A stretch of 64,000 bases of DNA from an uncultured Verrucomicrobiae bacterium (GCA_963836755.1 CAWIKF010000002.1:1248001-1312000), one strand, 5' to 3'. Positions 13,971 to 51,847 are shown, counted from the stretch's first letter. Notes: generated by a model not told the origin, from the sequence alone. Program-made: numbers and translations.

Positions 13971-13985
13971 GGGAGGGGGATTATC

Positions 13986-14100
13986 CGGACGGCCCGGACG
14001 GGGTCATCGGACTCAATTTGAAAGTTGAGATGAGTTTTATATAGCCTTTCAAGGATTCAGAATTTTCAAATGACTTTAAATGTGCCGTCCGGTGCGTCCG
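13986..14100. repeat. CGGAC origin-like unit 1 (likely replication origin)
   Basis: CGGACGGCCCGGACG, AT-rich core, CGTCCGGTGCGTCCG; immediately downstream of the replication genes. Confidence 0.75.
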
Positions 14101-14374
14101 TAGCAGAGGGTAAATACTCGTAGAGTTTGCTATCGCCCCAATTTCATAAAATCCCAATGGAGGTCGGGTTTTATTCAAAAAATGCCTAAATTTCGCGCCC
14201 GGAGCGTTTTTATAAAACCTCTTTGCCTCTCTTGCTGGGCTAATTTGCCGATGATTACCACCGTGTGCGCTCCAACCTCGACAAACTGTGAATTCTTGGG
14301 ACAACCAGCCGTGCGGATGAATAAGCCTTTCTGCTGAGACAAACTGCACGTCTTGCGAGGATAGCCACCCATAA

Positions 14375-15454
14375 ATGTTCACCATTCAGCGCGACGCCCT
14401 TACATTTACCTTCCCGGAAATCGCCGGGCAGGTGCGCTCGCTTGTCGAGCGCAAGATTGAAGAATTCGCTTCTGCGCTCCCTCCTCGTTCCGAGCGAAAC
14501 AAGCTCATAGAGGAAATTGAATCCAACGAGCGATTCAGCAAACTAAGCCTTTCGCAAAGGGAACGCGCGAGCGCGATGTTGCGCACATGGACGCCTGAGG
14601 ACGTGGCAGCGGGTTTGCGGAGAACGATACTGGAACTCGGCGGCTTGAACACGGATGCGTTCACTGAGTTGACCGTCAAATTCCAGCGCACCATGCGAAT
14701 TCCAGACGGCGGCCAGACCTATTCCCTAGCGACGAATTTAGGCCAGCTTCCACTTCGCTCCGTGGATGCTTGTTCCAAGACCGCGCTGCCTTCGTGGATC
14801 AAGAAGGAGAGCGTTGTCCTGCCCTTGCACCGCAGCGAGGCACTCTGGCTTTGGTTCTCCTCGCGCTATCGCTTCGCGGTAAAAATCGGCGTCGGGAAGC
14901 TCGATGCGTTGACTGGCGAACCTTGGAACTCAACCCTGCACCGGCAACCGCAAAACTATCTCGTGGTTCCCGAGCCGTGGTGGAGTGAGAGCGATGAAGT
15001 CCTTTGGCACTATCTCGCGCTGCCGCTCGGCGTTGGCGACAGCGCGATTCGCTTGCAGGTCACTCCGATGTCCGCTGAATCCTATTATGACAACGAATTT
15101 TTGATCCGCACGCCGCGATCGATCCACGAGTTTTTCTCCAGCATTATCTTTGGAGGAATGATTCTCGCGCAGATGGAGCCGGGCCAACGCGAGCACGAGC
15201 GGTTCGAACTGGAATTCATGGAAGACAAGATACAGGCCGCGCTCTATCAATCCGTTCCTCAGAAAATTCCGGAGGACTCCTATGACTTCACGGCAAGGGG
15301 TCAAACGCAAAACGTCCACGGCATCGTTCACCCTTGCGATTCATCGGCTTGGAGACAAATCACCGGTACGAACCCGCCTCATCCGCCACTGACAGCCGAT
15401 GACTACCGGCAGGCAGGCATTCCGTGGGTTGAGAGCTACCGTGCAAGTGTGTGA
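14375..15454 (+). CDS. Hypothetical protein, possibly degenerate
   Basis: 359-aa ORF with a FQRTMRIPDG...SEALWLWF block recalled from an uncharacterised family. Confidence 0.55.
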   Translation: MFTIQRDALTFTFPEIAGQVRSLVERKIEEFASALPPRSERNKLIEEIESNERFSKLSLSQRERASAMLRTWTPEDVAAGLRRTILELGGLNTDAFTELTVKFQRTMRIPDGGQTYSLATNLGQLPLRSVDACSKTALPSWIKKESVVLPLHRSEALWLWFSSRYRFAVKIGVGKLDALTGEPWNSTLHRQPQNYLVVPEPWWSESDEVLWHYLALPLGVGDSAIRLQVTPMSAESYYDNEFLIRTPRSIHEFFSSIIFGGMILAQMEPGQREHERFELEFMEDKIQAALYQSVPQKIPEDSYDFTARGQTQNVHGIVHPCDSSAWRQITGTNPPHPPLTADDYRQAGIPWVESYRASV

Positions 15455-15601
15455 ATAGAATGATTCGAACGACGAATCGCGTGCGTAAACGAAATGAATC
15501 GGATTCAAACAGACGTCGCCGAGGAAATTGTTGCAAGATGAAGCTTGGACAAAGCATCTCCCTCAACACGACGTTTTCGTGCGCAAAAAAGTAAGGCATT
15601 T

Positions 15602-16462
15602 ATGATTACACAAAACTCACAGACGAGAGATTTAACGAGCATGGATAACATTGACGCCAATAAAATTCAGCCGATGCCCAAGGAGATTCATGAGCGACTA
15701 AACGAACATGGGGTCTATTTCAAAAAACGTGTGCTTCACGAACTGCGAAGCTATCAAGGTCTATCTATCGCGGGCGAGGAGGTCGGCGAATCATTCGGTA
15801 AAACCCGCGTGGCTGACATCCTCGCGTTCGACAAACGGAGCGACAGCCACACCCTCTACTTTGTAATTGAGTGCAAACGTGTCGCGAGTGAAAAGGTTTG
15901 GATTTTCTTTCGCGATATCGACAATACTTACAGAGCTTCTCGCGTGTCTAACATCGCCGGTCCATCAAGCGTCGTGCAAACTAGCGATCGGCTGCAGCTA
16001 GAACCTCCTGTATGCTCCGAAGGATATGAGTATCCAGTTGGCAGAAACAAAGTTGCCGACCAAGATCCCATTTTTCAGGCTGCAAGTCAGTTGTCAGGAG
16101 CTTTCTTAGGCTTTATAGCGCGGAGACAACGGATATGGCAACCCAACGCAGTAGAGCGTTTCGTCCCTCTTTTGGTGACGACGGCCAAATTATTCGCGGT
16201 AAATCAATCCGATCTTTCCAAGACGGATCTTCTATCTGGAAAGCTGAACTCAAGACCGCATTGCCTTGAGACTCCATTTGTTATTCTTAAACATCCTTTC
16301 CCGACACCGGAAGGCTTGGCCAAGGATTTTCGCGACGAGATCCAAGGAGAATCGTGGACTGCCATGCATCGCGAGACCATTTATGTCATAGGTGCCAGTG
16401 GCCTAAGAGAGTTCTTTGAGATTAGTCACCGCGATTTCCTTCACGACGCACGTAATGAATAG
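15602..16462 (+). CDS. Putative PD-(D/E)xK nuclease
   Basis: ADILAF...FVIECKR motif. Confidence 0.6.
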   Translation: MITQNSQTRDLTSMDNIDANKIQPMPKEIHERLNEHGVYFKKRVLHELRSYQGLSIAGEEVGESFGKTRVADILAFDKRSDSHTLYFVIECKRVASEKVWIFFRDIDNTYRASRVSNIAGPSSVVQTSDRLQLEPPVCSEGYEYPVGRNKVADQDPIFQAASQLSGAFLGFIARRQRIWQPNAVERFVPLLVTTAKLFAVNQSDLSKTDLLSGKLNSRPHCLETPFVILKHPFPTPEGLAKDFRDEIQGESWTAMHRETIYVIGASGLREFFEISHRDFLHDARNE

Positions 16463-16477
16463 ACTTCGATTGTTGCT

Positions 16478-17954: not shown

Positions 17955-18075
17955 CGGACGCCCCGGACGCCTGTTTTTGAGTCTGGTTGAAAAGTGGATC
18001 TAGCATAGACTTCTTTGAATGTCACTGGACTCCCAAGGAGTTGAATATAGCCGTCCGCAGCGTCCGTAACGTCCG
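17955..18075. repeat. CGGAC origin-like unit 2
   Basis: CGGACGCCCCGGACG ... CGTCCGCAGCGTCCGTAACGTCCG (extra third repeat). Confidence 0.85.
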
Positions 18076-19131: not shown

Positions 19132-19461
19132 ATGTCGCGCTTAGAGGACACCATGAACTTTCTTACAGATCAAGAGTGGGGCTGGTGCCCGTTTCTCTTC
19201 CTCCGGCCGCGCAAGGATCAGGACATAGACAACGCCGTCCTTCTAAAGATGGCGTGTTGCTTCGGTCCTGTCGCAGGCTTGGTTGCGTTGTTGCCCCTGT
19301 TCCTGTTTCGCCATGGCGTCACTGCTCGCGAAGTGATCTTGTGTCTCGTCGGCGCTTCGATTCTATTCTTTTTAGCCTACAAGTGGACCTTCGCTATCTT
19401 CTGGAATCGCCGCGCCGAGCGGCTTCGCTCATCGAACGCGCAGCCCGCCTCGGAGACCTAA
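19132..19461 (+). CDS. Cassette membrane protein
   Basis: Two TM segments; stop codon lies within the TAAC box of the attC. Confidence 0.7.
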   Translation: MSRLEDTMNFLTDQEWGWCPFLFLRPRKDQDIDNAVLLKMACCFGPVAGLVALLPLFLFRHGVTAREVILCLVGASILFFLAYKWTFAIFWNRRAERLRSSNAQPASET

Positions 19462-19580
19462 CCAGGCGATGCAGCGAACCGCTGGCCGCTCCGCGTTTTA
19501 GCTTGCGATGACTTCCACATTCAACCTGCAGCCACACGCGGCCTCGCCAGCGGTCGCTGATCTTGTGTCTCGTTAGGCGC

Positions 19581-20030
19581 ATGAGAACGCACCGCGTAAT
19601 TCACGGTTTGGCGATTCTGTCGCTCATAGTCGTCGCTGCCATGAGCGTCATCGGCAGCCTGCGTCAGTTTCCCGGAGCACCGCCCGAGATGAGATTCGCG
19701 CCACTCGTCGGCCTCGCTATTTGGTCGTTCCTGCTCTGGAAGATTTGGCGACGTCCTCGCAAATGGGGTCTCGGAGTCGGCATCTTCCTCTTTCTGATGA
19801 TCGCCTTCCAGAGCTACCTTTGGTGGCTTGGCGTCAACAATCCCAAGCTAGAGGCACAGATACCAGAAGCCAGCCGAAGCGTTGCCAACTTCATTCTGAT
19901 TTATGAGCTTCCGATCTTCGTTGCTGGTGTGTGCTGCATTTTGCTACGCTTTTCCAATCCACATGAGTCCTTTGACCACGCAGCGAAATGCGCCCGACCC
20001 TGCGATGCAGCTAACAGGCTCCGCCTGTAG
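19581..20030 (+). CDS. Cassette membrane protein
   Basis: About four TM segments; starts 3 nt after GTTAGGC. Confidence 0.65.
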   Translation: MRTHRVIHGLAILSLIVVAAMSVIGSLRQFPGAPPEMRFAPLVGLAIWSFLLWKIWRRPRKWGLGVGIFLFLMIAFQSYLWWLGVNNPKLEAQIPEASRSVANFILIYELPIFVAGVCCILLRFSNPHESFDHAAKCARPCDAANRLRL

Positions 20031-20059
20031 CTGATCTTGTTCTCGTTAGGGCCAAAACC

Positions 20060-20272
20060 ATGAAACCAAAAACGAAAGCAACAATATTACTGGCAATAGG
20101 ACTAGCTCTACAAAATGCAGGCATCATAACTGTTCCGCTGCATCTGTCGCAAAATGTGAAAACAGTTTTGATCTTGATAAGCATACCATTTTTTATATGG
20201 AGCATAGTGTTGTTTACCCGCAAGAAGCCCACGCCCGAGAACAAATCAATCCCACTAGAAATACCAAAATGA
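20060..20272 (+). CDS. Cassette small membrane protein
   Basis: 70 aa, two hydrophobic segments, bracketed by GTTAGGG and CCCTAAC. Confidence 0.6.
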   Translation: MKPKTKATILLAIGLALQNAGIITVPLHLSQNVKTVLILISIPFFIWSIVLFTRKKPTPENKSIPLEIPK

Positions 20273-20774
20273 AGCGATGTGATTTAAATAGCCCTAACCA
20301 AGCGATGCAGCTAACAGGCTCCGCCTGTAGCTGATCTTGTTCTCGTTAGACGAGTATGCGACGCGAAGACGAAAGTCACATTGTAGCCGATGGCCAGTCG
20401 CGCATCGTCGCTGGTTATGCTGCTCGGCTCCGCGCCCGTTTGCTTCGGCGCGCGGCTCCGCTACTTGAGCGTGGCAATCCCCTGCAGCGGATGGCGATTC
20501 GCTATCGGATGTCTCGTTTTGTTCGCGCTCAGATTCGCCGCCGGCGTCGAAAGTTGGCTCCGTTCGAAGCACTGTATGCATTGCCTAGTCAGTAGCCGCT
20601 TGTTTCGGGAGTTTCACGTGAGGCCACGCCAAACGTCTAACCATGCGATGGAGCCAACCACTGGCCGGCGTACGCGCAAGTTTTCCGTGAGTCCAACCCC
20701 ACATCCCGCCGCCACGCGCGCTCTCGCCAGTGGTGGCTGATCTTGTTCTCGTTAGGCTCCTTCCGCGCACTTCG

Positions 20775-21311
20775 ATGAAAGGCATTCAAGAACTCACCCT
20801 GAGAGTGTGCGTGACCGCCCTTTTCCTGTTTCCGGCGTTGTCTTTCGCTTATGCCCGCCCCAGACCAATCGCTGCTCGAATCATCAATATCCGTGGAGAG
20901 ACTCAACCCGAAGATGCAGTCGGCAATGTTGAGGTTACGCTCTCAAACCACCGCAAAGAGATATGGACTCGTAGCTGGCATTGCGAGCTTGCTAAAGTCT
21001 CCAAGACTAGGCTGGTAGGTTGGACTTACGCATCGGGCCAGCATACACGCGGCCCGTGGATGAACGATGAGTTGTGCATCGCGAACAGCAGGCACGACGT
21101 AACCCACTTTTCTGTTGATCGTGCGTTTATTGACCTTTGGGATTTTACCGATCACGATACTTGCGTCGTAATACGTTCACGGAACATTCATGGTCCTTCG
21201 TGGCTCGAGAAGTTTCGGATCGACACCGGCCAGTTCATCGATGAGTGTTCGGGCAGCAACTATCCTGAGAAGACCCCAGAATGGGCAAGACCATATCTCG
21301 ATGAACAATAG
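20775..21311 (+). CDS. Cassette secreted hypothetical protein
   Basis: Signal peptide; bracketed by GTTAGGCTCC and GGAGCCTAAC. Confidence 0.65.
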   Translation: MKGIQELTLRVCVTALFLFPALSFAYARPRPIAARIINIRGETQPEDAVGNVEVTLSNHRKEIWTRSWHCELAKVSKTRLVGWTYASGQHTRGPWMNDELCIANSRHDVTHFSVDRAFIDLWDFTDHDTCVVIRSRNIHGPSWLEKFRIDTGQFIDECSGSNYPEKTPEWARPYLDEQ

Positions 21312-21490
21312 CCAGGAGCCTAACCATGTGATGCAGCTAACAGACTCCACCTGTAGCTAATCTTTTTCTTGTTAGATGCAGAATACGAGTATGAACGAAG
21401 TTGCTAAACCACCGTCAGCGCACCGGTGCTGCTTTTGATTTACCGCGTTAATTCTTGACTTCGCACCGTCGTGATTTCAAAATCAACATT

Positions 21491-21850
21491 ATGAAACGCT
21501 CCCTCCTTACAACACTCGCTCTTCTTCCATGTTTTGCGTTAGCCGCGACAAGTCCCACCTCCATACCCCCTGATGTAGCTCATGAGCTTTCGGTGATGAC
21601 GACCAAGCTGAAGCTGAGTGAGAGTCAGCAAGACAGGATCAGGCCGATACTTGTGGCGGAATTTAACAAGAAGCAAGCGATAGAGAACAGCACGCTCAGC
21701 GACAGGCAGAAACATGATCAGGTTGGGTCGAATCACAGGGCGGCGTTGCAAAAGATTAAGGCATTGTTTACGCCCGAACAACTGGCGCTGATAGAAGAGG
21801 ATCAGAATCATCCATCTACAAGTTCGACAAGGCCGAAATCGAGAGATTAG
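21491..21850 (+). CDS. Secreted helical protein (Spy/LTXXQ-like)
   Basis: Signal peptide; LKLSESQQ and FTPEQ motifs. Confidence 0.55.
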   Translation: MKRSLLTTLALLPCFALAATSPTSIPPDVAHELSVMTTKLKLSESQQDRIRPILVAEFNKKQAIENSTLSDRQKHDQVGSNHRAALQKIKALFTPEQLALIEEDQNHPSTSSTRPKSRD

Positions 21851-22098
21851 TTAATGAAAACAAAACATATTGGGTGAGTTGTTGCGGCTGCCTATTGCGC
21901 TACGCGGCGGATGCGCTTGCATTCTATCATGTTTTCCAGAGCCAATCGACTGATCAATCATACCGGTTTATTCTTTCAAGGATTTGTCCTTTGCCTCAGT
22001 TTCCTGTCGCAATGCAATCGCTGCTAGTTGGGCTAAGTCTAGCGATAGGAGGCAGAGACTTTAGGGGAGGAGAGGGGCGATTGTCGCCGCTTTAAACA

Positions 22099-22211
22099 CG
22101 GACGCCACGTACACCATTTAGAGACTCACTTTGGGGATATCGAACGATGACGCGCTGCTCTTTCCTCTCAGAATCCTGAATTGAGTGCAACACTGCCGTC
22201 CGCAGCGTCCG
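22099..22211. repeat. CGGAC origin-like unit 3
   Basis: CGGACGCCACGTACA ... CGTCCGCAGCGTCCG. Confidence 0.8.
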
Positions 22212-22534
22212 CGATTACCTTTCCTAGGGCATTGTCCTTGTGCTGGCACTTCTCGCGGGCGTGCTCGGCTCTTGGTCTTTCCAGAGTATTCGTCCCTTCG
22301 ACTTTTACCACGAAGCCGATGGTGGTATGCCGGGATGGGAGCCCGTTATGATGTATTCTAAAACTACGATCCAGTGTTGTATCATTGCACTTGTTTCGGT
22401 ATTCGGCAGCGCACTTGCGTGCTACTTTATTACTCGACATGCTGAACCCCGCACAACGGACTAACCATGCTATGCAAGTAAATCGATCCCGCCTGTAGCT
22501 GAGCTTGTATCTCCTTAGGCTGTTGCACTATACC

Positions 22535-22954
22535 ATGAAACCTATTTTTCTCTTCAGCCTGCTCCCACTCATTTGCGCTGCCGCGTTGCCGCAGCAGGAC
22601 TTTATTGGTTCACGCATCACTGAGTTTGAACGTGTCTCTTACGATTTCCAACTTACGAAAACGGCTCTGCAGAAAGCACCTGTATGGAGCCCGGAAGCTC
22701 CATTTCCTCCGCTATCGCCTAGGAAAGCGCAGGAGATCGCTACGGCGCAGCTCCAAGAGTTGCTTCCCGATCAGCATCGGTGGATGCGCATTTCTAGGAT
22801 CACGCTGGAGGAGCTTGACGGTTCGCATTGGATTTACCTAGTGACATTTGATTATGTTCCGCCGACTCCGTATTCAGGACCAGCTCGGTTGTTCACGATT
22901 CCAGTTTATCTCGACGGTTTCATCATAACACCGCACATTCGCAAGCAAACATAA
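22535..22954 (+). CDS. Cassette secreted hypothetical protein
   Basis: Signal peptide; lies between two attC sites. Confidence 0.65.
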   Translation: MKPIFLFSLLPLICAAALPQQDFIGSRITEFERVSYDFQLTKTALQKAPVWSPEAPFPPLSPRKAQEIATAQLQELLPDQHRWMRISRITLEELDGSHWIYLVTFDYVPPTPYSGPARLFTIPVYLDGFIITPHIRKQT

Positions 22955-23035
22955 TGAGGCTAACCATGCGATGCAGCTAAGAGGCTCCGCCTGTAGCTGC
23001 ATCTTGTTCTCGTTAGCTACCCTGCACATCCAACC

Positions 23036-23353
23036 ATGAAATTCAGCCTATTCTTACCATTTGCAGCGGTCACACTCCTATGCGCCGGCTGTAACCATTC
23101 GGATCGCGACGATGATGTGTTGTTTATTGGCTACCGTTATGCCAAAGACAGCCATGCCTACGTTTCTGCCAACGCAACGAAATATATGGGCGATGGTTAT
23201 GCCACGTCGCTGAACGCCAGTCCCCATGTGAGGATTTGGGGTTCCATGTGCAGCCTGACTTGGGTCGAAACCGAGAGTGACGGGAGCAAAAGGACAAAAC
23301 ATGTCAGCTTCCCTGTATCGAACATCGACGAGATTGTTTGGAAGGGCGACTAG
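23036..23353 (+). CDS. Cassette lipoprotein
   Basis: Lipobox-like CAGC; lies between attC sites. Confidence 0.6.
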   Translation: MKFSLFLPFAAVTLLCAGCNHSDRDDDVLFIGYRYAKDSHAYVSANATKYMGDGYATSLNASPHVRIWGSMCSLTWVETESDGSKRTKHVSFPVSNIDEIVWKGD

Positions 23354-23479
23354 TTCGCTCGGCCGTATCACCCAGCCTAAAAGGCGCTCCAGCGAACCGA
23401 GGCTGGCGATGGGCTTTTTCTTGTATTCCAAGTCTTCTCGCGCCAGCCTCTGTCGCTGAGCTTGAGTCCGTTAGGCTCC

Positions 23480-23839
23480 ATGCGCTTTTTCATCGCCATT
23501 ATAGGTTTGTTTGTTTTGTGCGGTTGCCACAGTCAAATGGCATCCGAACCACAGCGAGAGGCTGGCGCACCGTTTGGCGATATGTGGCGTCCAGATGACA
23601 GTCGGTTCACGCAGCGTGAGCACGAGATTGTCGCTTCCGCTCGTAGTTATCTCGACAAGCAACAGAAGAAGCCAGTCGATGGATATTACAAACTTGAGCA
23701 CACAAAAGATCGCTACGAGGTCTTTGTTATGTTTGCCGCTGGCCGCGAGCATGGCCGCCCGTTATTTTATCCCGGCGGTCATTGCACTGTGTTGCTCCGA
23801 GAAGATGGGAGTGTGATTCGTGTATTACCTGGAGCCTAA
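23480..23839 (+). CDS. Cassette lipoprotein
   Basis: Lipobox LCGC; stop codon in the attC TAAC box. Confidence 0.65.
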   Translation: MRFFIAIIGLFVLCGCHSQMASEPQREAGAPFGDMWRPDDSRFTQREHEIVASARSYLDKQQKKPVDGYYKLEHTKDRYEVFVMFAAGREHGRPLFYPGGHCTVLLREDGSVIRVLPGA

Positions 23840-23982
23840 CAAGTCGCTGAAGCCAACCGCAGTTGGTACTTGCAGTTCCGCTGTCGCGGTTCACGTTAGG
23901 TGTTGCCGGCCGCTCACCAATCGACAACAACCGAAGCAAACTAGCTGATCTTCAGCAGATGCGTCTCGACAATCGCACTTCC

Positions 23983-24284
23983 ATGAAAGGTCTATCTATC
24001 GTAATCCTCCTCGCTGCTCTGACCTCGGCGCTGTTTGCCCGAAACATACAGTGGCGAACGAAAGATAAGCCACCTGTTTCCATCATTGCGGCAGTGGAGG
24101 CCGCGACCAAGGAATTGGACAAAGGAGGTGCTGATTTTTACTGCCTGGGAGTAGCATCGGAAGGAACTTCTCAGAATGCGACTGGCTGCTTACATTCTCG
24201 AACGCTGCTGGTGAGGTCCGCTGGGTTTCCGTCGGTAGCGACGGTAAGATTAGAGTCAGCAAGGAAGCATTTGAATATGATTGA
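23983..24284 (+). pseudogene. Frameshifted small secreted protein
   Basis: MKGLSIVILL...FYCLG continues in another frame as CDWLLTFSNAAGEVRWVSV. Confidence 0.4.
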
Positions 24285-24425
24285 CACCCAATCCCACCTC
24301 TCCCGCGAACAGCGGCTCAGAGTCAGGTCTTTCCTGTTTGGAATCCTTGACCTGGCCTGCCTCTGTCGCTGGACTTCGGTCGGTGATGCGGCATTCGGAC
24401 CCTCCAAACAAATCTGATCCCGCCG

Positions 24426-25711: not shown

Positions 25712-25817
25712 CATGGTGCCCGCGCGTCACTCCGCACACTCGGGACCCGGCGATGCAGCTAACATCTTCCCCCGATAGCTGATCTTGTTCTCGTTAAGTC
25801 ACCACTACCACACCATT

Positions 25818-39396: not shown

Positions 39397-39563
39397 TCAA
39401 TAAAAAGGCGGTCAAGGATTTCGCGTTGAGCATGGCCAAGACCCGCTCCCACAAGTTTACGAGAGTGGGTGGCGGGTTCTTTGTGAAATGCGAGGCAAAC
39501 TTGAAAAGCTTCATCCGCGAGCATGTCCAGCGTCTCCCTTCCAAGGGGAAGACGATCAACTAA
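39390..39563 (+). CDS. 57-aa basic protein, putative minimal histone fold (absent from ORF track)
   Basis: GGAGGT RBS; MLINKKAVKDFALSMAKTRSHKFTRVGGGFFVKCEANLKSFIREHVQRLPSKGKTIN. Confidence 0.55.
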   Translation: MLINKKAVKDFALSMAKTRSHKFTRVGGGFFVKCEANLKSFIREHVQRLPSKGKTIN

Positions 39564-39610
39564 AAACAAGCCTGTGAAAAATCTTTCATAGGCAAAACCA
39601 ACAACAAAGA

Positions 39611-39647
39611 GAGAGCCCGTATGCCAGCAATGGTGTGCGGGCTTTTT
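39611..39647 (+). terminator. Terminator-like hairpin
   Basis: AGCCCGTATGCCA-GCAA-TGGTGTGCGGGCT followed by TTTT. Confidence 0.55.
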
Positions 39648-39676
39648 CATTCCAAAAAGAAAGGAGCCACACGCTC

Positions 39677-41173: not shown

Positions 41174-41490
41174 GATGATGCAGTGCAGTGCAATCCTTAA
41201 GGATGATCGCACTACTGCACTAGATCATTGTCATCGGTGCAGAGGTGCAAACAGTGCAATTGCACCGTTGCACTAGAACTTCAATTTCAGGCGATGAATG
41301 GGACGCAATTCTTCGTCGCTTGAAGTCATCGCAATCCTAAATGGGACGTGGGTTGTGAATACCGGAGGGGTTGGAGCCGAGCGTTACGCAGTGCTCCAGC
41401 CCCTCTCAATCTTTTGTCAATGCCTGGCTGCAAAAGCAAAAGGCCAGGCTCGTTCTCAGCAAGTAAACAACAAACCGAAAGGAGCCAATT

Positions 41491-42276
41491 ATGGTTCAAT
41501 TACTCGATCAACCGGTGGTGCCACGCAAGCACCCCAATCTCATCCTCCACTGTGGAGCCAACAAAGTGGAGCGGCGCGACGTGGAGAAGGTGCCAACGCC
41601 AAGGGCAACCTCCACATGGACACCAATCCCACACACGCAGCTCATCGCGCGGGTGGAGAAAACACTCGCTGCCAATCATCTCACTATCGGCACCTTCGCC
41701 CACAGCCTCAGTCACGACGGCGCGCGCTACTTTGGTCTCATGGAGATCCAGAATGGCGACAGCAACGAAGACTACGCATGGGTGCTCGGCTTACGAAACT
41801 CACACGACAAAACATTCCCAGCCGGCCTTGTTGCTGGGTCCTCTGTGTTCGTTTGTGACAACTTGAGTTTCAGCGGTGAAGTCAAACTCAGCCGCAAACA
41901 CACGACCTACATCGTTCGCGATTTGCCACAGCTCGTGGAGCGTGGCATCGGCCGCATGCTGGAGAAGTGGCACGATCAGCATGTTCGCTTTGACGCATAT
42001 AAAACCAAGCGCATCAATGAAACCTCAGTGCATGATCTGATCATCCGCGCCACGGATGTTGGCGTGTGCTCGAATCGGCTCATTCCTTCGGTGCTTCATC
42101 AATGGCGTGAACCGCAGTATGAGCAATTCCAGGCGAGAAACGTTTGGTCGCTATTCAATGCTTTTACCGCTGCTCTCAAGGAGCAAAGCCTCGCTGAACT
42201 CCCAAAGAGAACGGAAGCATTGCATGGGCTGCTTGATACTCATGTGGGGCTGGCGAAGAAGTTCAGCACGAGCTGA
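41491..42276 (+). CDS. DUF932/DUF945-like protein
   Basis: PIPH, LRNSHD, FVCDNL and WSLFNAFT motifs; AAGGAG RBS. Confidence 0.8.
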   Translation: MVQLLDQPVVPRKHPNLILHCGANKVERRDVEKVPTPRATSTWTPIPHTQLIARVEKTLAANHLTIGTFAHSLSHDGARYFGLMEIQNGDSNEDYAWVLGLRNSHDKTFPAGLVAGSSVFVCDNLSFSGEVKLSRKHTTYIVRDLPQLVERGIGRMLEKWHDQHVRFDAYKTKRINETSVHDLIIRATDVGVCSNRLIPSVLHQWREPQYEQFQARNVWSLFNAFTAALKEQSLAELPKRTEALHGLLDTHVGLAKKFSTS

Positions 42277-42413: not shown

Positions 42414-42557
42414 TGCTGCTCGATGAAAATCACCGAAGACGTCCGCAAATACGCCGCCGAGCAAGGCCTCCCCGAAGATGAAGCTTTGCAAAAAGGACTC
42501 GCCGAAAAGTCTGCCGAGTTCGTGGAAAAAGGCGCGGAGGTTTACGCCAAGGCATAA
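42414..42557 (+). pseudogene. thiC: 3'-terminal fragment of thiC
   Basis: [46 protein letters not shown] resembles the ThiC C-terminus. Confidence 0.8.
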
Positions 42558-42588
42558 TTACAACAAAAACCTAATCACTCACTTCACA

Positions 42589-43731
42589 ATGGCTCATCGA
42601 GAAAAGCTATCACCCGCCGAGATTGAGAAACGTTATGACTCTGGGCAGAACCGTCTGACACAAGAGCGGAGCGACTTTCTGCTTCCTCAAATCATTGACT
42701 TTGTTCAGCAGAAAAAATGGCTCAATCTTAGGCCGGAATATCAGCGCCGACTGGTGTGGGATCGTAAAAAGAAGTCTTTATTCATCGAGTCCCTATTGAT
42801 GAACATCCCAGTGCCACCTGTATTTTTGTATGAGACCGATTTAAGTCGGTATGAGGTCATGGATGGACAGCAACGACTAAATACCATTTTGGAATTTTAT
42901 GGTAACCAACTGAAGTTAACTGGCCTCGACACTTGGTCGCCACTCAACGGGCTAACCTATTTAAAATGCCCACCTCGGATAAAGAGTGGGCTGGACCGAC
43001 GGCGCATTTCGGCAAATGTGCTTCTTGCAGAGAGCGCATCGACGCCCGCGGAGGTCAACTTCATCAGACGAACCGTTTTTGAACGCCTAAATACAGGCGG
43101 ACAGCAACTGAACGCTCAAGAACTTCGGAATTCCCTATACTCGGGACCCTTCAATGATCTGATCATTGAACTGGCTGGAAATCGCTTGTTTGATCAAATT
43201 TGGGAAATCCCGCCCTATGAAGATCATTATCGAAAAGAGGAAGGCTATATAAGCCCCGAACTCGCTGAGAATAAGCTGTTCAAACGGATGACTGATTGCG
43301 AAATCGTCCTCCGCTTTTTTACATTTCGAAATAGTTCTTCGATCAAGGGATCGGTTAGGTCAATGCTGGATAGCTGCATGGATGAGAAACGTGAAGCTGA
43401 CAAGTCGCAGATCGACGAATTGAGAACAGCTTTCACGGAAAGCCTTGAGACGGCGCACAAAATCTTCGGCGCACGCACATTTCAAGTTCGTGACCCGAAG
43501 GGTAGCTGGAAGCTTTCCCAGCCACTGTTTGACGCAGTAATGGTCGCTACAAACATTCTAATAGCGAAAAAGGACAGCTTGATTCTGAATCGCAGTAAGC
43601 TCTCGAAAGATTTGCATGATGTCCTCGCTGTGCCCGAGACCTATGACATTGTGGTGGGTAAGCCCAATACGGCTATTGCAATCCGTCAGCGGCTTTCAAT
43701 CGTTGGTGATATTTTCAAAAAGCATTCTTAA
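42589..43731 (+). CDS. DUF262 (GmrS-like) protein
   Basis: PEYQRRLVW, DGQQRL and FERLNTGG motifs. Confidence 0.9.
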   Translation: MAHREKLSPAEIEKRYDSGQNRLTQERSDFLLPQIIDFVQQKKWLNLRPEYQRRLVWDRKKKSLFIESLLMNIPVPPVFLYETDLSRYEVMDGQQRLNTILEFYGNQLKLTGLDTWSPLNGLTYLKCPPRIKSGLDRRRISANVLLAESASTPAEVNFIRRTVFERLNTGGQQLNAQELRNSLYSGPFNDLIIELAGNRLFDQIWEIPPYEDHYRKEEGYISPELAENKLFKRMTDCEIVLRFFTFRNSSSIKGSVRSMLDSCMDEKREADKSQIDELRTAFTESLETAHKIFGARTFQVRDPKGSWKLSQPLFDAVMVATNILIAKKDSLILNRSKLSKDLHDVLAVPETYDIVVGKPNTAIAIRQRLSIVGDIFKKHS

Positions 43732-44513
43732 TGGCTGCAGCGTTTGCAGACGCTGGGCTTAAAGAGTTTGGCTTGGCTTTAGACGAACTGGCTGAGGACC
43801 TAGAGTTCTTGCGTTTGTCTTCGAGGCTTCGCCCACGCTTGGGAGCCTTGCTAAATTGGCAGGCTGTCGATGGCGATGCAGCCCAACTCGCAAAGGGTTT
43901 CATGAACCTCAAAACGGTAGAGCTTTCTCCGCTTTACCGAGGAATGATCGCAGTTCTTTCCGGAACCTTCGAGCAATTGGTTAGGCGGGTGGTTCAAGAA
44001 GCGGTGCTACAGATCAACAATGATGTAGATGTCTTCGATAAACTGCCGGACGGGATCAAAGTTCATAATTTATTCTTCAGTGGTCGCGCACTTTGTGCAG
44101 TTCGCGAACCTCCTGATCACGTAACGATCGATCATTACTTGCTCGTCCGTTCGTTGGCAACTTGCACACCCGGAGCGCAGAAATTCGTATTAAACGCCGA
44201 TGCTTTCGCCATGTTCATCACCAATCTTACTCCCTCACACCTTGGGGACATCTGTCACTCGATTGGTGTTTCGTTGAATTGGGACTACTTTGGAAAAGTA
44301 AACGCTTTTGAAAAACTGTTCGGATCGAAGGGAGCACGCTCATTGGGGAAGATGGTTTCCGATCGACTTGCGGATATAGTCAAATTGAGAAATCGCATAG
44401 CTCATACCGGCGCCGGCGGGGTTACGGTATCGGAGGAGGACGTCGCGTCACATATCGCGTTCCTAAGAATCCTTGGGCTAAGCTTTTCCGCTTTTATCGA
44501 GGCCGAACTCTAG
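43731..44513 (+). CDS. HEPN-family putative RNase
   Basis: RNRIAH (Rx4H) motif; coupled to the DUF262 gene. Confidence 0.75.
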   Translation: MAAAFADAGLKEFGLALDELAEDLEFLRLSSRLRPRLGALLNWQAVDGDAAQLAKGFMNLKTVELSPLYRGMIAVLSGTFEQLVRRVVQEAVLQINNDVDVFDKLPDGIKVHNLFFSGRALCAVREPPDHVTIDHYLLVRSLATCTPGAQKFVLNADAFAMFITNLTPSHLGDICHSIGVSLNWDYFGKVNAFEKLFGSKGARSLGKMVSDRLADIVKLRNRIAHTGAGGVTVSEEDVASHIAFLRILGLSFSAFIEAEL

Positions 44514-44516
44514 CAC

Positions 44517-44621
44517 GTGAACACCCCATTCATCCACCCCGCCGTCCGCATCGGGCATGTGCATTTGAAGGTGGCGGATTTGGAGTTGGCGATTAGGTTT
44601 TATCGGGATCCTGAACCATAA
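44517..44621 (+). pseudogene. 5' fragment of a VOC/glyoxalase gene
   Basis: IHPAVRIGHVHLKVADLELAIRFY, then stop. Confidence 0.65.
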
Positions 44622-44655
44622 CGCTAGCCCTACTTCTGGATTTCCGCAGCCGCTC

Positions 44656-47600
44656 ATGCCTTCCCCAAAACAAACGATCCACACCATTCTCGACCAATTT
44701 CGCGAGGAAACCACCTCCAATCGCGAACTTGGTGACCGTTTCGAGCGTCTGATCTGCCGCTACCTCGAACTCGACCCGATGTATGTAGATCGCTTCTCCA
44801 GCGTATGGATGTGGAATGAGTTCCCAAAAAAAGGAAACGTCGGAGATGTGGGCATAGATATCGTGGCGGAGGAACGCGCGACCGGAGAATACTGTGCCAT
44901 CCAGTGCAAGTTCTACTGCCTGATCACACGCTCTCGAAGGGCGAATTGGATTCCTACTTCACTGCATTGGGAAATCCCCTGTTCACCAATGGCATGATTG
45001 TCTCCACGACGGATCAATGGGGATCGAATGCGGAGCACGCGGCGGCTCATCAAACAAAACAAGTTTCTCGGCTGCGCGTCCAAGACCTCGACGAAAGTCC
45101 GGTGGACTGGGCGAAGTTCGATCTCAAGCGCCCGACAGACCTCGGTCTCCGCGCCCGTAAAAAGCCAAGGCCACATCAAGACGAAGCGATTAAGGATGTG
45201 CTCGCGGGCCTTGTCATTGCCGACCGTGGCAAACTCATTATGGCTTGCGGCACGGGCAAGACGTTCACGTCACTTTGCATCGCGAAAAACTCGCGCCGAA
45301 AGGCCATATCCTTTTTCTCGTGCCGTCGCTCTCCCTGCTGTCACAGAGCTTGCGCGAATGGACTGCGGAATCCACTCGCCCGCTCCACAGCCTTGCCGTG
45401 TGCTCAGATGCGAATATTGGCAAGAAACATACAAAGACCGATGACGATAGCGCGGACATCACCACGATAGACCTGGCGTTTCCTGCTACGACCTCCGCAA
45501 AGCAGATCGTCCGTCAGTATGAGGCAGTGCAGAGCATGGCGGAGAAAAAGAAGACCCCTCCCCAGATGACAGCGGTCTTCTCCACCTATCAATCTATCGC
45601 CGCTGTTTCCGAGGCCCAAAAGGCAGGGCTACCGGACTTCGATCTCATCATCTGCGACGAAGCGCACCGCACCACGGGCGTCACGATTAGCGGCGAGGAC
45701 GAGAGCCATTTCGTGAAAGTCCACGATGCCGCCTATATTCGTGGAAAGAAGCGTCTCTACATGACGGCCACGCCGCGCATCTATGGCGATCAAGCCAAAT
45801 TGAAGGCGCAGGAAGCGGATGCCAAACTCTGCGACATGGACGATGAGGCGATGTTTGGCCAGCAACTCCACCGTCTCGGCTTCGGCGAAGCCGTCGGTAA
45901 AGAACTGCTTTCCGACTACAAGGTGCTCGTCCTCGCCGTGGACTCGGGCTACGTCTCCAAGGCGTTCCTCACCGGCGCGACGAAAGAGATACCGCTTGAG
46001 GATGCCGCCAAGATTACCGGTTGCTGGAATGGCCTCGCCAAACATCTCGACAAAGCGGCCTCTGCCGAGGGTGGCGACACCGCTGTAGATTTGCATGGCG
46101 ATAACGCGCCCATGCGCCGTGCTGTAGCCTTTTCCCGCTCCATTAAAGACTCGAAAGCCTTCACACAGCAATTTGCCCAGATCATCGACGCCTATCGCGC
46201 CTTGCACCCGGAAAAAGATAACATCCTCCGTTGTGAGCTGGATCATGTGGACGGCACCTTTGGTGCGCTCGCACGCAATGCCCGTCTGGACTGGCTCAAA
46301 GCCGACGCCGGGGAGAATACTTGTCGTATCCTTTCAAATGCCCGCTGCCTTTCTGAAGGTGTAGATGTTCCCGCGCTGGATGCGGTGCTCTTCCTCAATC
46401 CACGTAACTCTGTCATTGATGTCGTCCAGTCCGTTGGGCGCGTCATGCGTCGGGCCGAGGGAAAAAAATACGGTTACATCCTTCTTCCTATTGTTATCCC
46501 GCCGGATGTTACGCCTGAAGAGGCGCTGAAGGACAACGAACGCTACAAAGTCGTTTGGCAAGTCCTCCAAGCACTCCGCGCCCATGACGACCGCTTCAAT
46601 GCCACCGTCAACCAGATCGAGCTAAATAAAAAACGGCCCGCCAACATCCAGGTCATCGGCGTCGGCGACCCGCTGCCGAGCCTCGAAACCCACGGCGACA
46701 GCAAACCCAAAACACAGGAGACGCAGGGCACTTTTGTCTTTCCCCACTTGGAAGATTGGAAAGATGCCATCTATGCCAAGATCGTTCTTAAATGCGGAGA
46801 TCGCCGTTATTGGGAAAGCTGGGCCAAGGATGTCGCTATCATCGCCGAGCGCCACGCCACCCGCATACGGGCATTGCTCGAAAGCGGCGAGCCTCGCCAC
46901 AAATCCGCCTTTGCCGATTTCCTCGCGGGTCTTCGCCAAAATCTCAATCCTAGCATCTCTTCCGATGACGCCATTGAAATGCTTTCCCAGCACCTGATCA
47001 CGCGCCCGGTCTTCGACGCGCTTTTTGCGAACTACGAATTTACAAAGCACAACCCCGTCTCCCTGGCCATGCAGACCATGCTTGATACCTTGCATGATCA
47101 AGACTTGGAGACGGAGGTCGGGAAGCTGGAGAAATTCTATGACAGCGTCCGCGCCCGTGCTTCAAAGATAGATAACGCCGAGGCCAGACAGCGCATCGTC
47201 ATAGAACTCTATGACAAGTTCTTTAGCACCGCTTTCCCAAAAGTGAAGGAGCGCCTCGGCATCGTCTATACCCCGGTCGAGGTCGTGGACTTCATCATCC
47301 ACAGCGTCAGCGACGCCCTCCAGAGCGAGTTCGGTTCTGCGCTCGGGGACAAGGATGTCCACATCATAGACCCCTTCACCGGCACCGGCACCTTCATCGT
47401 CCGCCTTCTGCAAAGCGGCCTCATCCCCGCCGCCGACCTCCTGCGCAAATACCAGCACGAGCTGCACGCCAACGAAATCATCCTCCTCGCCTACTACATC
47501 GCCGCTATCAATATCGAGGAGACCTTCCACGGCCTCATGCGCGAGCGCGCTGCGAAGTATCCCGGCAAAAAGCCTGCCGACGCCACCAAGGCGGACAGCT

Positions 47601-49582
47601 ACATCCCCTTCGAGGGCATCGTCCTCACCGACACCTTCCAGCTCTCGGAGACAAAGGGAGAGATGGAGGAAAAAATGTTCCCCGAGAACAACCGCCGCGT
47701 GAAGCGCCAACGGCAAAGCCCCATCCGTGTCGTCACCGGCAACCCGCCCTACTCAGCCCAGCAAGAAAGCGAGAGCGACAACAACAAGAATCTTGCCTAC
47801 CCGAGCTTGGACGCTCGCATTGCCGCGACCTACGCCGAACGCTCCAATTCCAAACTGGCGAAGAACAACTACGACTCCTATATTCGCGCTCTCCGTTGGG
47901 CCAGCGACCGCATCGAGGCAAAAGGCATCGTCGCCTTCGTAACGAGTAGTTCCTTCATCTCGAAGAACAACATGGACGGCATCCGTGCCAGCTTGGTTGA
48001 TGAGTTCAGCGCCATTTACATCTTCAATCTTCGAGGTGACGCGCGGACGCAGGGCGAACAGCGACGCATGGAAAAGGGTAACGTGTTTGGCGGAGGGAGC
48101 CGCTCTGGGATCGCCATATCGCTCCTCATCAAGAACCCCGAGAAGGTAGGGAAATGCGAACTCTACTACCACGACATCGGCGACTATCTCAGCCAAGAGG
48201 AGAAGCTCGCTCTCATCCGCAACACCCAAAGCGTCAACGGTATTCACCGAGAGAAAAAGTGGTTGCGCATCCAGCCCAACGCGAGCCATGACTGGCTCAA
48301 TCAGCGAGACCCGATTTTCAGCACATTCTTACCGCTTGGCGATAAAGACGATAAAAGCACGAAAACCGTGTTTTCTACTTACTCGCTCGGTGTAGTGACC
48401 AACCGCGACACTTGGGCCTACAACACGTCGCGGGCAGCGGTTGAAGCAAACATCCAACGACTGATAGAAGCCTACAACTCAGAGCGTGCGCGTTACCGTG
48501 ATGCTTGCATCGGCAAAGGCAAAGACGAGATACCAGAAATCGAGAGCATCATCGATTCGGATCTAAAACGTATTAGCTGGACCAGGGCGCTTAAGGCGGA
48601 CGCCAAGCGCGGTAAACCCTTGGAGTTTGAAAGCCAATCGCTCACCACGAGCATGTATCGCCCGTTCGTGAAGCAATGGCTTTATTTCAACCGCCGCCTC
48701 AATGAGATGGTTTACCAGATGCCGAAACTCTTCCCCTCTGCGGCACACAGCAATATCGTCTTATCCGCGATGGGAAGCGGCGCAACGAAGGACTTCTCGG
48801 TTCTCGCGACGAGCACCTTGCCCGACCTCGAAATGATTGCGAAAGGCCAGTGCTTCTCACTTTACGTCTATGAGAAGGACGCGCCGCAAGAGGGTGAACT
48901 TATCGGCAAGCAGCAGGAGGGCGAGCTGGTGGACGGCTACCGGCGGAGGAGCGCCATCACGGATGCGATCCTCGCGGATTTCCGCAAGGCGTATGAGGCG
49001 AAGGTCACGAAGGAGGACATCTTTTACTACGTGTATGGCGTGCTGCATTCGCCGGAGTATCGGGCGCGCTTTGCCAGCGACCTGAAGAAGATGCTGCCGC
49101 GCATCCCCTACACCCGGGAGGTGGCGGACTTCTGGAAGTTCAGCAAGTCAGGCCGCGACCTCGCCGAGTGGCATTTGAATTACGAAACCGTCGAGCCGTG
49201 GCCGATCCAGGAACATTCCAACTCTTTGTCACTCGACCCCGCAAAAGACTACCTCGTGCAGCCGAAGATGAACTTTGGCCGCAAGGACAAGCAGGTGGAC
49301 AAGACGGCCATCATCTACAACAACCGCCTCACCCTCACCGGCATCCCGCTTTCCGCCTACGACTACGTGGTGAACGGCAAGCCCGCCATCGAGTGGATCA
49401 TGGAGCGTTACCAAGTGACCGTGGACAAGGACAGCGGCATCCGCAACGACCCGAACGATTGGGCGCGCGAACACCAACAGCCGCGCTACATCGTCGATTT
49501 ACTTAAGCGGTTGGTGCGGGTGAGCATGGAGACGATGAAGATCGTGAATGACTTGCCAGCGATCAACGAGCGAATTAAATGA
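44656..49582 (+). pseudogene. Type ISP restriction-modification enzyme (LlaGI/LlaBIII-like) with two frameshifts
   Basis: IDIV...AIQCK nuclease; ACGTGKT and DEAH helicase; DPFTGTGTF and NPPY methyltransferase; frame breaks near 44916 and 45285. Confidence 0.85.
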
Positions 49583-49720
49583 GTAAAGGTTATCTTCCCA
49601 GTAAGCGCAATGGTTGGAGCGGCGGCGTGTGCCAATTTCAATCGCGCCTCCAGAATCTGCCCCTCCGCCAGTCCATCCTCCAAAAAGCCTTCGGCAGCGC
49701 CTAAGAATTCCGGAAATCTA

Positions 49721-50152
49721 ATGAAATCAACTCCAGCAACTCACGCACTTGAAAAACTTGCCCGTTCCTACAGCGAGCGACATCTGGCTGTGAACGCAGA
49801 GTATCAACGGGGAGCCGCTTGGAACGTCCGCCAGCAAAGAGCTCTTATAGATTCGATTCTTCGTGGATTTGTTTTACCGATCTTCTATGTCCACGTAGTC
49901 AAAACGCCAAACCTTTTCACTGGTTTCGAAACGGTAACCGCTTGGCTTGTAGATGGTCAACAGCGGCTAAACGCAATCACTGAGTATATGCGTGGACGCT
50001 TCGCCCTAAATGATCCCAGTCTTGGAACGACAGGTTTAGCAATGGCCTACGAGCGGCTAAATCCGCCCCGATGGGCGGGCAAGCGTTTCGAGGACCTTGA
50101 AGAGTTGACATTATTGTTGTTCCTGAAAATGACCGACAGCCAGGGTGTGTAA
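49721..50152 (+). pseudogene. Truncated DUF262 protein
   Basis: EYQRG and DGQQRL motifs; ends early in an HsdM-like ELTLLLFLKM peptide. Confidence 0.65.
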
Positions 50153-50180
50153 AACTTTTTCTACCCTGACATCGTAAGTT

Positions 50181-50498
50181 ATGTGGCTCGCAACCAAACA
50201 CTGCTTTTACTCCATCGCCCATAAGCAAGCACCTGACGACGGAAAGCCAGCAGTTTACCATGTTCGTGCTCGTGTTCGCGGAGATTTGGAGAATCTGCTT
50301 AAAGCCACAGGGATGCTCCAAGAGATCCAGGAATGGCCGAAAGCTGATTACCGCTATCGGATTATCGTGAGCCAGCAGGAGGCGTTTGAGATCATGAACC
50401 ACCTAGCTGAGAGTTTGGATTACTCCAATTTCAAATCCAAATCGCCGCCACGGACGATCAAGGTGGGAAGCTCCACGCTTACCACGAAATCTGGGTAA
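50181..50498 (+). CDS. Hypothetical protein, probable C-terminal frameshift
   Basis: MWL...FYSI...VRAR...DYRYR...LDYSNFK. Confidence 0.55.
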   Translation: MWLATKHCFYSIAHKQAPDDGKPAVYHVRARVRGDLENLLKATGMLQEIQEWPKADYRYRIIVSQQEAFEIMNHLAESLDYSNFKSKSPPRTIKVGSSTLTTKSG

Positions 50499-50562
50499 TG
50501 GATAAACTGCAAATGCGGTGAAGGACAACCAACAACCCGAATTATTAACAACCTATTTGAGT

Positions 50563-51342
50563 TTATTCGATGCTGCGGATAAATCGCTTCAGATGGAATG
50601 CGGCAAGTGAAACGTCTGAATGAGGTATCGAAGAAGTTCGTCCTTTGAGTGCGGCTGCAATGTTTTTCGGGTTAAGAACCCACGCATCGCCCGACTTGGC
50701 TTTCTGCTCTACATACCATCCCGGATAAACCACGATAGGCCACACAGGAAAGTCCTTTCCGGTCGATGCCTTTAAAGTTTCCTTGATGAAGCGAGCATTG
50801 GCTTTTGCCTGGTCAATCGGATTAGGTTCCACCACTCGATCGTGAATCATAATCTCCTTGCCGTCGAAATAAACCCTCTCCTCCTGACCTCCCGACTTCG
50901 ATCTCGTTTTGGTTTCAACGACGTAAACTCCAGTAGCTCCAATCAGTACATGATCAATGTTGAAGTTTCCTCCAACGATATCATGCAAAACCTCATAGCC
51001 TTGTTTCCGCAACTCATCCAGATGCTCACCAATAATTCGCTCGCCATCTCTGCCTAACAGTAAATCTTGGCGTTCTTGCCACATTCTCCGGATTTTAGGA
51101 AAACAAAAACTGCAGACTGCTATCGCAATGAAGGTATAGGGGATTGGATGCGGGTTGTCCTTGCTATACCAACGCAACCACTCCGCCGCCATATTCCAGA
51201 GAATGAACAGGCAAAGTAGGCAAAGGCCCATAAGGTCCAACGAACGGCCGTAAAGTTCCGCTGTCAACGATTGCCCAGGGGCTCGTAAAGGCTTTTCCTT
51301 AAGCGGGGATCGAATCGCTGGCTTATTTCCGATATCCATCAC
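50563..51342 (-). CDS. NERD-domain nuclease with TM anchor
   Basis: GRDGE, NIDHVLIG, VVETK and PIDQA motifs. Confidence 0.8.
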   Translation of the reverse strand: MMDIGNKPAIRSPLKEKPLRAPGQSLTAELYGRSLDLMGLCLLCLFILWNMAAEWLRWYSKDNPHPIPYTFIAIAVCSFCFPKIRRMWQERQDLLLGRDGERIIGEHLDELRKQGYEVLHDIVGGNFNIDHVLIGATGVYVVETKTRSKSGGQEERVYFDGKEIMIHDRVVEPNPIDQAKANARFIKETLKASTGKDFPVWPIVVYPGWYVEQKAKSGDAWVLNPKNIAAALKGRTSSIPHSDVSLAAFHLKRFIRSIE

Positions 51343-51383
51343 TGTGCACGTTTAGCAACCGCGCAATCCTGTTTCCGTCCTAC

Positions 51384-51800
51384 TCACCTTCCCGCATAAG
51401 ATTCTGAATGCGACAGGTGCTTGTTCCAATTTGCTGTGTACTTCGCAATCAGGTCCGGCACGTTTTTCATGATGAGCAGGTTTTCAGCGTTACTATGCTC
51501 CGCCGCCTTGGTGAAATTAAACGAGCCAGTGATCAGCGTCTCCCCATCAATGATCATGATCTTGTTATGAGCTATGGCATGCTTGCCGTCAAGCCAGGTC
51601 GGGATTTTGGCATGAGCGACAAAATCAGCCGCAGCCGAATATTTGCCTGTTGTGTTGTCCTTTTTGTCCAGGATCACCTTCACATCGACCCCTCGCTTGT
51701 GGGCATCTACCAGAGCCTTGGCAATCTCGTCACTGGTGAAGGAATATGCTTGAACCAGCACCGTCTTCTTCGCCGCGTTTAGCTCGCGCACGATCGCATC
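51384..51800 (-). pseudogene. PLD-family (Nuc-like) nuclease, 5'-truncated
   Basis: AYSFT, HNKIMIID and TGSFNFT motifs; N-terminus replaced by the CGGAC half site. Confidence 0.75.
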
Positions 51801-51802
51801 TG

Positions 51803-51847
51803 TTTCTAAGGTAGTGAGTTTTACCCGTCCGGGCCGTCCGGGAATTA
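51803..51847. repeat. Terminal right-arm half site of the CGGAC unit
   Basis: CCCGTCCGGGCCGTCCGG (51824-51841) is the exact reverse complement of 13985-14002. Confidence 0.85.

Follow-up and report, generated by a model that had tools for sequence, protein, structure and literature searches.

The stretch of DNA analysed here, 64,000 nucleotides (nt) from an uncultured Verrucomicrobiae bacterium (GCA_963836755.1 CAWIKF010000002.1:1248001-1312000; hereafter the window), contains an integrated 43-kb island in which five repeat units with CGGACG arms (units 1-5) recur in a single polarity between blocks of cargo. By analogy with the origins of Staphylococcus aureus pathogenicity islands (SaPIs), we consider it likely that these units are iteron-type origins of the PrimPol/superfamily 3 (SF3) primase-helicase that the island itself encodes, with unit 1 as the primary origin and the extra units as cognate sites of the same protein that double as handles for cargo exchange. 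Unit 1 is very probably the island's origin because its layout is SaPI-like, because 25 of 26 loci that carry both a unit and the helicase gene have the unit on the 3′ side of that gene, and because the helicase is modelled to end in a winged helix.

The units share a compact anatomy. Each has two CGGACG hexamers per side at a 9-bp period, the sides facing each other (CGGACG twice, then CGTCCG twice), and an inner TTT..RASTC motif follows each hexamer pair and flanks a centre of lower GC content. Coordinates throughout are those of the whole window, which has a GC content of 0.53 in a host genome of 3.18 Mb and 58% GC. Counting both strands and allowing at most one mismatch, the window holds 12 copies of the half-site CGGACG-N3-CGGACG where 0.49 would be expected, and none of 100 shuffles gave 12; all five units listed by a first-pass annotation of this DNA are present, far above chance. 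Their common polarity, which that annotation had also proposed, is borne out by the spacers between the hexamers, which on the left read GCC, CCC, CCA, CCA and CCA in units 1-5 and on the right, as reverse complement, CAC, CTG, CTG, CTA and CTG. The common arms hold for units 1, 2, 4 and 5, in which 24 of 24 hexamer bases are intact, the inner motif is kept and the centres are unalignable. The left arm of unit 3 is degenerate (CGGACGCCACGTACA, two mismatches), and the right side of unit 2 extends to a third CGTCCG that reaches 18075. Across their full length, units 3 and 4 share 77% identity, which stops exactly at the outer hexamers, so that the earlier description of the centres as unrelated applies to the set except this pair. 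The GC content of the centres of units 1-5 is 0.34, 0.41, 0.48, 0.46 and 0.40, and the drop expected of an AT-rich origin centre is clear at unit 1.

Within the host genome the units are essentially confined to the one tRNA-Val island. The full-unit pattern occurs four times in the whole genome, every time in the island, which also holds 12 of the 15 exact half-sites; bare hexamers number about 1,500 each. A profile of the arm, about 50 nt long, finds 15 matches, of which 12 lie in the island, two at a degenerate sixth copy outside it (contig C2, 390,774-390,883) that has lost one left hexamer, and one is weak (E 0.27). Hexamers per arm thus range from one in the sixth copy to three in unit 2, and the block 26895-27195, comprising unit 4 and its flanks, is 83% identical to C2:390,684-390,961. 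The claim that units occur only inside the attachment (att) boundaries therefore stands for the five full units and fails for the sixth copy. Two right-arm-type half-sites near the two ends of the island (Table 1) are copies of a 24-nt direct repeat that are 23/24 identical and lie about 40 kb apart, with no homology between them past the 24 nt.

These distributions bear on whether the units are an ordinary parasitic repeat resembling a miniature inverted-repeat transposable element (MITE), with terminal inverted repeats, which we regard as highly unlikely. Such an element would fit the unit length of 112-115 bp, the inverted ends of about 35 nt, and the relatedness and sharp outer boundaries of unit 3, unit 4 and the sixth copy. 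The first-pass annotation had named abundance across the chromosome with target-site duplications as the mark of a MITE; the genome-wide profile scan instead places the matches in the island apart from the two at the sixth copy and the weak one, and no target-site duplication is visible in the flanks of the five units. Further arguing against a MITE, no transposase is present, and the hexamers are conserved in five phyla together with the same helicase family.

This association with a helicase emerges from a scan of one genome per species (185,579 species), which returned at least 118 stretches with the exact unit pattern. The 84 loci analysed were searched by tblastn, the query being the helicase portion of the primase-helicase from the window. 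A helicase homologue is present in 25 of the 84, at 36-54% identity over residues 380-675, and 24 of these 25 loci are labelled as belonging to the Planctomycetes-Verrucomicrobia-Chlamydiae (PVC) phyla; the labels in the scan include Verrucomicrobiota (including Akkermansia), Lentisphaerota, Kiritimatiellota, Planctomycetota and Chlamydiota. In 24 of the 25 loci, or 25 of 26 with the window, a unit follows the helicase 3′ end at a distance of 29-583 bp (median 290), L111 being the sole exception. The N-terminal primase domain varies among these proteins (PrimPol, Toprim or BT4734-like_N), and the DUF5906 helicase and the C-terminal stretch of about 100 residues are conserved. The loose inner inverted motif recognised in the first-pass annotation proves real and is kept in relatives, where it is conserved as arm sequence rather than as base pairing.

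Closer to the host, the exact pattern is found in 10 of 151 genomes of the window's bacterial family, with none in a reversed control; at two mismatches the count is about 17 of 151, judged by eye on the inner motif at a level where the reversed control also matches. A unit stands 3′ of the primase-helicase gene in G031:C50, G053 and G114 and before the block of PDDEXK nuclease, ligase and clamp genes in G100, and this backbone gene set also follows a unit in L024 and lies between units in G053. As with iterons, the copy number varies: an Akkermansia locus shows two right arms and four left arms, the latter in tandem, around an AT-rich core, and A. muciniphila has one left arm with three to four right arms. 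Tandem 150-bp units lie beside the PrimPol-helicase gene at L066 5950-6440, one variant having both arms changed to GGGACG/CGTCCC. A metagenome scan with the window primase gave no closer relatives, and a literature search, which was not exhaustive, surfaced no description of these sites in such elements.

The helicase itself is the candidate initiator. SaPI origins consist of 6-12 penta- or hexanucleotide iterons right downstream of the rep open reading frame (ORF), at least two per side in opposite directions around an AT-rich centre, according to the available part of their description (PMC9371898). According to the same text, Rep is a self-loading helicase, sometimes with a fused primase, and recognises these iterons through a winged helix that belongs to its C-terminal domain (PMC9371898). 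The core of the window helicase matches the SaPI PriRep structure entry 7OLA_A (E 1e-7, phmmer), and it is the single helicase match in the whole genome. In a predicted model of its last 156 residues (pLDDT 83), the last 85 or so form a winged helix that matches the C-terminus of AsfvPrimPol at Z 8.5, the DNA-binding domain of RFX at Z 7.9-8.0 and the origin-binding domain of phage P4, 1KA8_A, at Z 7.9 (root-mean-square deviation 2.5 over 78 aligned residues). The Z values are middling, yet they stand at the top of the match list and span the domain; the best Foldseek E value is weak (4e-3). Sequence match and model together point to an initiator related to SaPI Rep, a helicase with a C-terminal winged helix. 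The suggestion that the units are origin-like sites of helicase loading, made in the first-pass annotation, thus appears well supported on comparative grounds by the 25 of 26 positions, the SaPI layout and the C-terminal fold.

The C-terminal winged helix would recognise the CGGACG hexamers, two per side and facing each other, and helicase hexamers would be loaded at both flanks of the lower-GC centre, as for SaPI Rep and the origin-binding domain of P4 alpha. Units 2-5 and the half-sites would be additional cognate sites of the same protein, maintained by selection, and would most likely act as auxiliary origins or as initiator-binding sites for looping or titration. They may also serve as homology handles for the swap or accretion of cargo blocks, since they are the only sequence common to otherwise unrelated cargo blocks and to related elements.

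Whole units fold better than shuffles (z -0.04 to -5.1), a contribution of the arms only. For the centres by themselves, folding does not exceed that of shuffled sequence, with z -0.5 to +0.8 in the five window units and -2.9 to +1.1 in 11 units of relatives. A folded single-strand site, either attC-like or an Frpo-like single-strand promoter, was rejected, the centres being unfolded and the promoter scan around unit 1 at chance level. A coding explanation was likewise set aside, the minus-strand ORFs across units 1, 3 and 4 being judged non-genic by eye, and an Rfam scan matched tRNA as the only family, with no RNA family at the units.

Each unit is followed by 250-500 bp of non-coding DNA and then by a plus-strand gene block, an arrangement that would also suit operator or insulator sites, bound by the initiator or by another island protein, that control the downstream cargo operons. 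Dispersed operators for a global regulator are known on plasmids (KorA/KorB of IncP-1), and one half-site lies at the 5′ end of the primase gene. We nevertheless consider this very unlikely: a scan in and around unit 1 shows no excess of promoter-like sites (1 found versus 0.7 expected), no candidate repressor is conserved with the units, and what is conserved is their place behind the helicase gene, at its 3′ end, rather than in front of a regulated gene.

Units 2-5 look selected rather than decayed, selection on the arms being indicated because the hexamers are intact while the centres are unrelated. They could alternatively be passive and functionless scars, leftover origins of former small replicons or of tandemly integrated relatives whose backbones were deleted, as a single polarity is expected of origin-to-origin cointegrates. 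The degenerate left arm of unit 3 and the missing hexamer of the sixth copy would fit such decay, and a primase-less locus with an integrase, units and toxin-antitoxin cassettes does exist in a related genome (G031). Scars are nonetheless distinctly unlikely, as four of the five units keep their 24 hexamer bases and the inner motif despite diverged centres, and a search of the genome found no rep gene or remnant beside units 2-5. Moreover, the modules have a uniform GC content of 0.51-0.53, and composition therefore does not separate them.

Relatives as a rule resemble the island in carrying several units per element: three in G053, two plus arms in G114, and two or more in G031, G032, L033, L066 and L134. 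There the variable cargo, which stands between the replication genes on one side and the PDDEXK-ligase block on the other, is bracketed by the units, and G053 has that block in inverted orientation with a unit at each end. Homology between G029 and G033 stops within the distal half of a unit, and that between G040:C194 and G031:C26 straight after the second hexamer of the left arm; in the G031/G040 pair the break lies 45-150 bp outside the unit. In two genomes of genus g10, G031 and G032, a toxin-antitoxin cassette and its units lie on opposite sides of a shared segment X. The primase-less G031 locus spans 5.4 kb, has no tRNA or att repeat that we could find at its ends, and belongs to a genome whose primase is on another contig. 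At L056 (G030:C158, 4752-7690), arms enclose 1.2-1.3 kb of gene cargo, with spacers of 104-122 bp between outward-facing arms; the enclosed cargo comprises a toxin-antitoxin pair and a 442-amino-acid ORF, and the topology is the reverse of that of the compact unit. No unit-to-unit joint is seen in the sole sequencing run that contains the island, a low-depth soil run with short contigs, and the joints listed there fall at attC repeats with sides of 22-28 letters; no RNA run is listed as containing the island.

This pattern invites the reading that a dedicated site-specific recombination system of cassette type, comparable to integron attC sites or Acinetobacter pdif modules, acts at the arms, with the cargo between them leaving and entering as circles and the proximity to the helicase secondary. 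The alternating orientation of arms that bound small toxin-antitoxin cassettes in relatives, the displaced g10 cassette, the homology that ends after the second hexamer, the inverted G053 block, the exact end of the 77% identity of units 3 and 4 at the outer hexamers, and the frequency with which contigs of metagenome-assembled genomes end near units all speak for it. We judge it rather unlikely, since no recombinase family specific to the units was found associated with them, the integrases present serving chromosomal att sites (in the window, tRNA-Val), and direct hexamers at a 9-bp period are not the core layout of a tyrosine or serine recombinase. Nor does it sit well with the unfolded centres and the lack of joints at units in the one run, and it leaves the 25 of 26 link to the helicase unexplained.

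A bolder view makes the units the engine of cargo turnover, in an "origin-cassette" system spread across the PVC phyla. A segment between two units of the same polarity could loop out as a circle with one complete origin. The primase-helicase, acting in trans, would copy this circle, which might then insert at another unit. Foreign DNA would be captured at the melted centre, aided by a toolkit of the element that resembles non-homologous end joining: an archaeo-eukaryotic primase (AEP)-type prim-pol, the WGR-ATP-dependent ligase, the PD-(D/E)XK nuclease and the clamp-like protein. Such a system is unlikely; if true, it would explain the unit loci without rep as hitchhikers, and the 1.2-kb gene cargo in the centres.

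The first-pass annotation had also taken the units to mark the joins of cargo modules. Circumstantially in its favour, the units of relatives bracket variable cargo and some breakpoints fall at or near them; the lack of a unit-to-unit joint in the one run, the lack of a dedicated recombinase and the make-up of the modules count against it. Modules 2-4 consist in good part of ordinary integron cassettes with attC sites, a second repeat family, unrelated to the units, that separates short ORFs between 19.4 and 35.7 kb. Similar attC clusters are numerous elsewhere in the genome, which encodes an integron integrase, IntI, at C2:765,056-766,015 (474 bits, cut-off 265). Because the cassettes carry genuine attC sites, some of the cargo could have been accreted by a known route, independently of the units. 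A truncated attC left half and then AAAAGGAG..CC stand directly before unit 4, unit 5 and the sixth copy, in stretches at 26894-26975 and 35671-35706 of the window and C2:390,884-390,964 of the genome, and the matching attC right halves of these three copies were not found. A dedicated mechanism of module accretion is possible.

Several observations weigh against the units being origins, an assignment that draws on position and analogy. Five units are present here, in contrast to the one origin right after rep in the available part of the SaPI description, and a position directly downstream of rep holds for unit 1 and not for units 2-5, beside which the rep search described above came back empty. 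The dip in GC content is no more than modest at the centres of units 3 and 4. In relatives, 59 of the 84 loci have no helicase in the fetched flanks, many of them probably chance matches in GC-rich actinobacteria that do not have the inner motif. A clade of primases at 41% identity (L049-L054; G128, G133, G126, G012:C1) shares the C-terminal domain and has no CGGACG unit downstream; no analogous iterons were found downstream of its genes either. Lastly, the L056 topology is not predicted by a simple origin model. The 41% clade has a small zinc-ribbon-like ORF downstream of the primase gene, and its proteins carry a C-terminal NSVQR in place of HDI(K/R)R.

Table 1 Units, half-sites and other features of the tRNA-Val island, in window coordinates
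Feature	Coordinates	Strand	Basis or remarks
tRNA-Val and left att copy	tRNA 9517-9588, att 9551-9592 (together 9517..9592, minus strand)		ARAGORN, Rfam, direct repeat
Tyrosine integrase	9679..10779	+	Pfam Phage_integrase; PHROG integrase
272-amino-acid ORF without family match	10776..11594	+	Pfam and PHROG scans
PrimPol / D5_N / DUF5906 (SF3) primase-helicase, candidate initiator	11676..13703	+	Pfam; start codon uncertain
Right-arm-type half-site CGTCCG-GGA-CGTCCG	11796..11819	+	Within primase N-terminal coding region; left copy of 24-nt direct repeat
Unit 1	13986..14100	+	286 bp past helicase stop; centre 34% GC; probable primary origin
Unit 2	17955..18075	+	Right side with three CGTCCG hexamers
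Integron-type attC array with short cassette ORFs, no integrase	19453..35694	+	Sites GCCTAAC...GTTAGGC
Unit 3	22099..22211	+	Left arm degenerate; within integron-type cassette, between attC 21308-21381 and 22458-22520
Unit 4	26976..27089	+	attC left half (26894-26960) just before
Unit 5	35707..35818	+	attC left half (35671-35694) before; PDDEXK-ligase-clamp-DUF932 backbone after
Backbone: PD-(D/E)XK nuclease, WGR-ATP-dependent ligase, beta-clamp-like protein, DUF932	36737..42276	+	Pfam, PHROGs
Defence-type cargo: GmrSD, HEPN, Mrr, Type ISP restriction-modification, NERD, truncated PLD nuclease	42478..51791	+	Pfam
Right-arm-type half-site	51824..51847	+	Right copy of 24-nt direct repeat; adjoins PLD truncation point
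HTH_17 (excisionase/AlpA-type) small protein	51886..52074	-	
Right att copy (partial tRNA-Val)	52488..52529	+	Direct repeat

The island extends over 9,551-52,529, between 42-nt direct repeats of the tRNA-Val 5′ half. Its right boundary is 52,529, not 51,847, because the att repeat pairs 9551-9592 with 52488-52529. Integration into the 3′ half of a tRNA gene is more usual than into the 5′ half; here the duplicated part is the 5′ half, and it is the 5′ side of the intact gene that faces the integrase. In the last module, a 1445-amino-acid Type ISP enzyme (45245-49582) stands beside GmrSD, HEPN (RiboL-PSP) and Mrr-type genes (42478-45444), forming a defence island. The PLD gene at 51384-51803 is 98.8% identical to C2:401,148-401,567, part of a gene about 860 kb away on contig C2 that has a second integrase gene at a distance of about 17 kb; in the window, about 50 N-terminal codons are missing, and the homology ends at 51803, about 20 bp from the right half-site.

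The units offer a concrete, testable origin, defined by its CGGACG-N3-CGGACG arms, and a candidate initiator for primase-helicase integrative elements that are widespread in the PVC phyla. Should the extra copies fire or recombine, they would reveal the way in which a minimal replicon is scaled up to large cargo or exchanges blocks of it, and a working pair of origin and initiator could be a start for vectors in genetically difficult phyla.

Among known systems, the attC sites that are interleaved with the units are like them in being imperfect inverted repeats of a single polarity, with conserved ends and variable centres, that separate gene blocks. The units are not attC sites: they have no RYYYAAC/GTTRRRY cores, their centres are unfolded, they are linked to a helicase rather than to IntI, and their blocks span 4-16 kb. 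The pdif modules of Acinetobacter are bounded by 28-bp XerC-6-XerD sites in alternating orientation, and alternating orientation is the only similarity; the units consist of direct hexamers and an inner motif, not an 11-6-11 inverted core, and do not belong to this Xer class. Phage P4 comes closer. Its alpha protein is a primase-helicase with a C-terminal origin-binding winged helix, a fold that is modelled for the island protein, and more than one cluster of initiator repeats occurs per replicon, P4 having two, ori and crr, about 4.5 kb apart. The repeats of P4 are octamers in two regions, in contrast to the five inverted-arm units of the island, and the primase domain types differ.

The Sulfolobus plasmid pRN1 has an inverted-repeat origin of about 100 nt just downstream of orf904, which encodes a prim/pol-SF3 protein; this origin is needed for replication and movable, according to the available part of its description (PMC4234260). 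The island likewise places a unit with inverted arms just 3′ of a gene for a prim/pol and SF3 helicase. As far as that description goes, the pRN1 element is single-copy; in the island only the arms pair, and the centres fold no better than shuffles.

The closest likeness is to SaPIs and phage-inducible chromosomal islands (PICIs), as far as the available text describes them: opposed hexanucleotide iterons, a lower-GC centre, a site 3′ of the primase-helicase gene and an initiator of SF3 type with a winged helix, all in an island that is integrated at a tRNA gene and encodes an integrase and a helix-turn-helix protein of excisionase type. The arrangement of at least two opposed hexamers per side is present in units 1, 2, 4 and 5, with two mismatches in the left arm of unit 3. 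The island departs from the single origin per element of the SaPI type by its five units and two half-sites, and also by having only two hexamers per side and an extra inner TTT..RASTC motif. A series of copies in one polarity around defence genes, toxin-antitoxin cassettes and an integron cassette array has no counterpart in that text. Its hosts belong to the PVC phyla, and its 43 kb hold integron cassettes and defence cargo, with no phage-interference or packaging genes seen. Best read, the kind of origin is a known one, and its multi-copy, same-polarity, cargo-bracketing layout is new.

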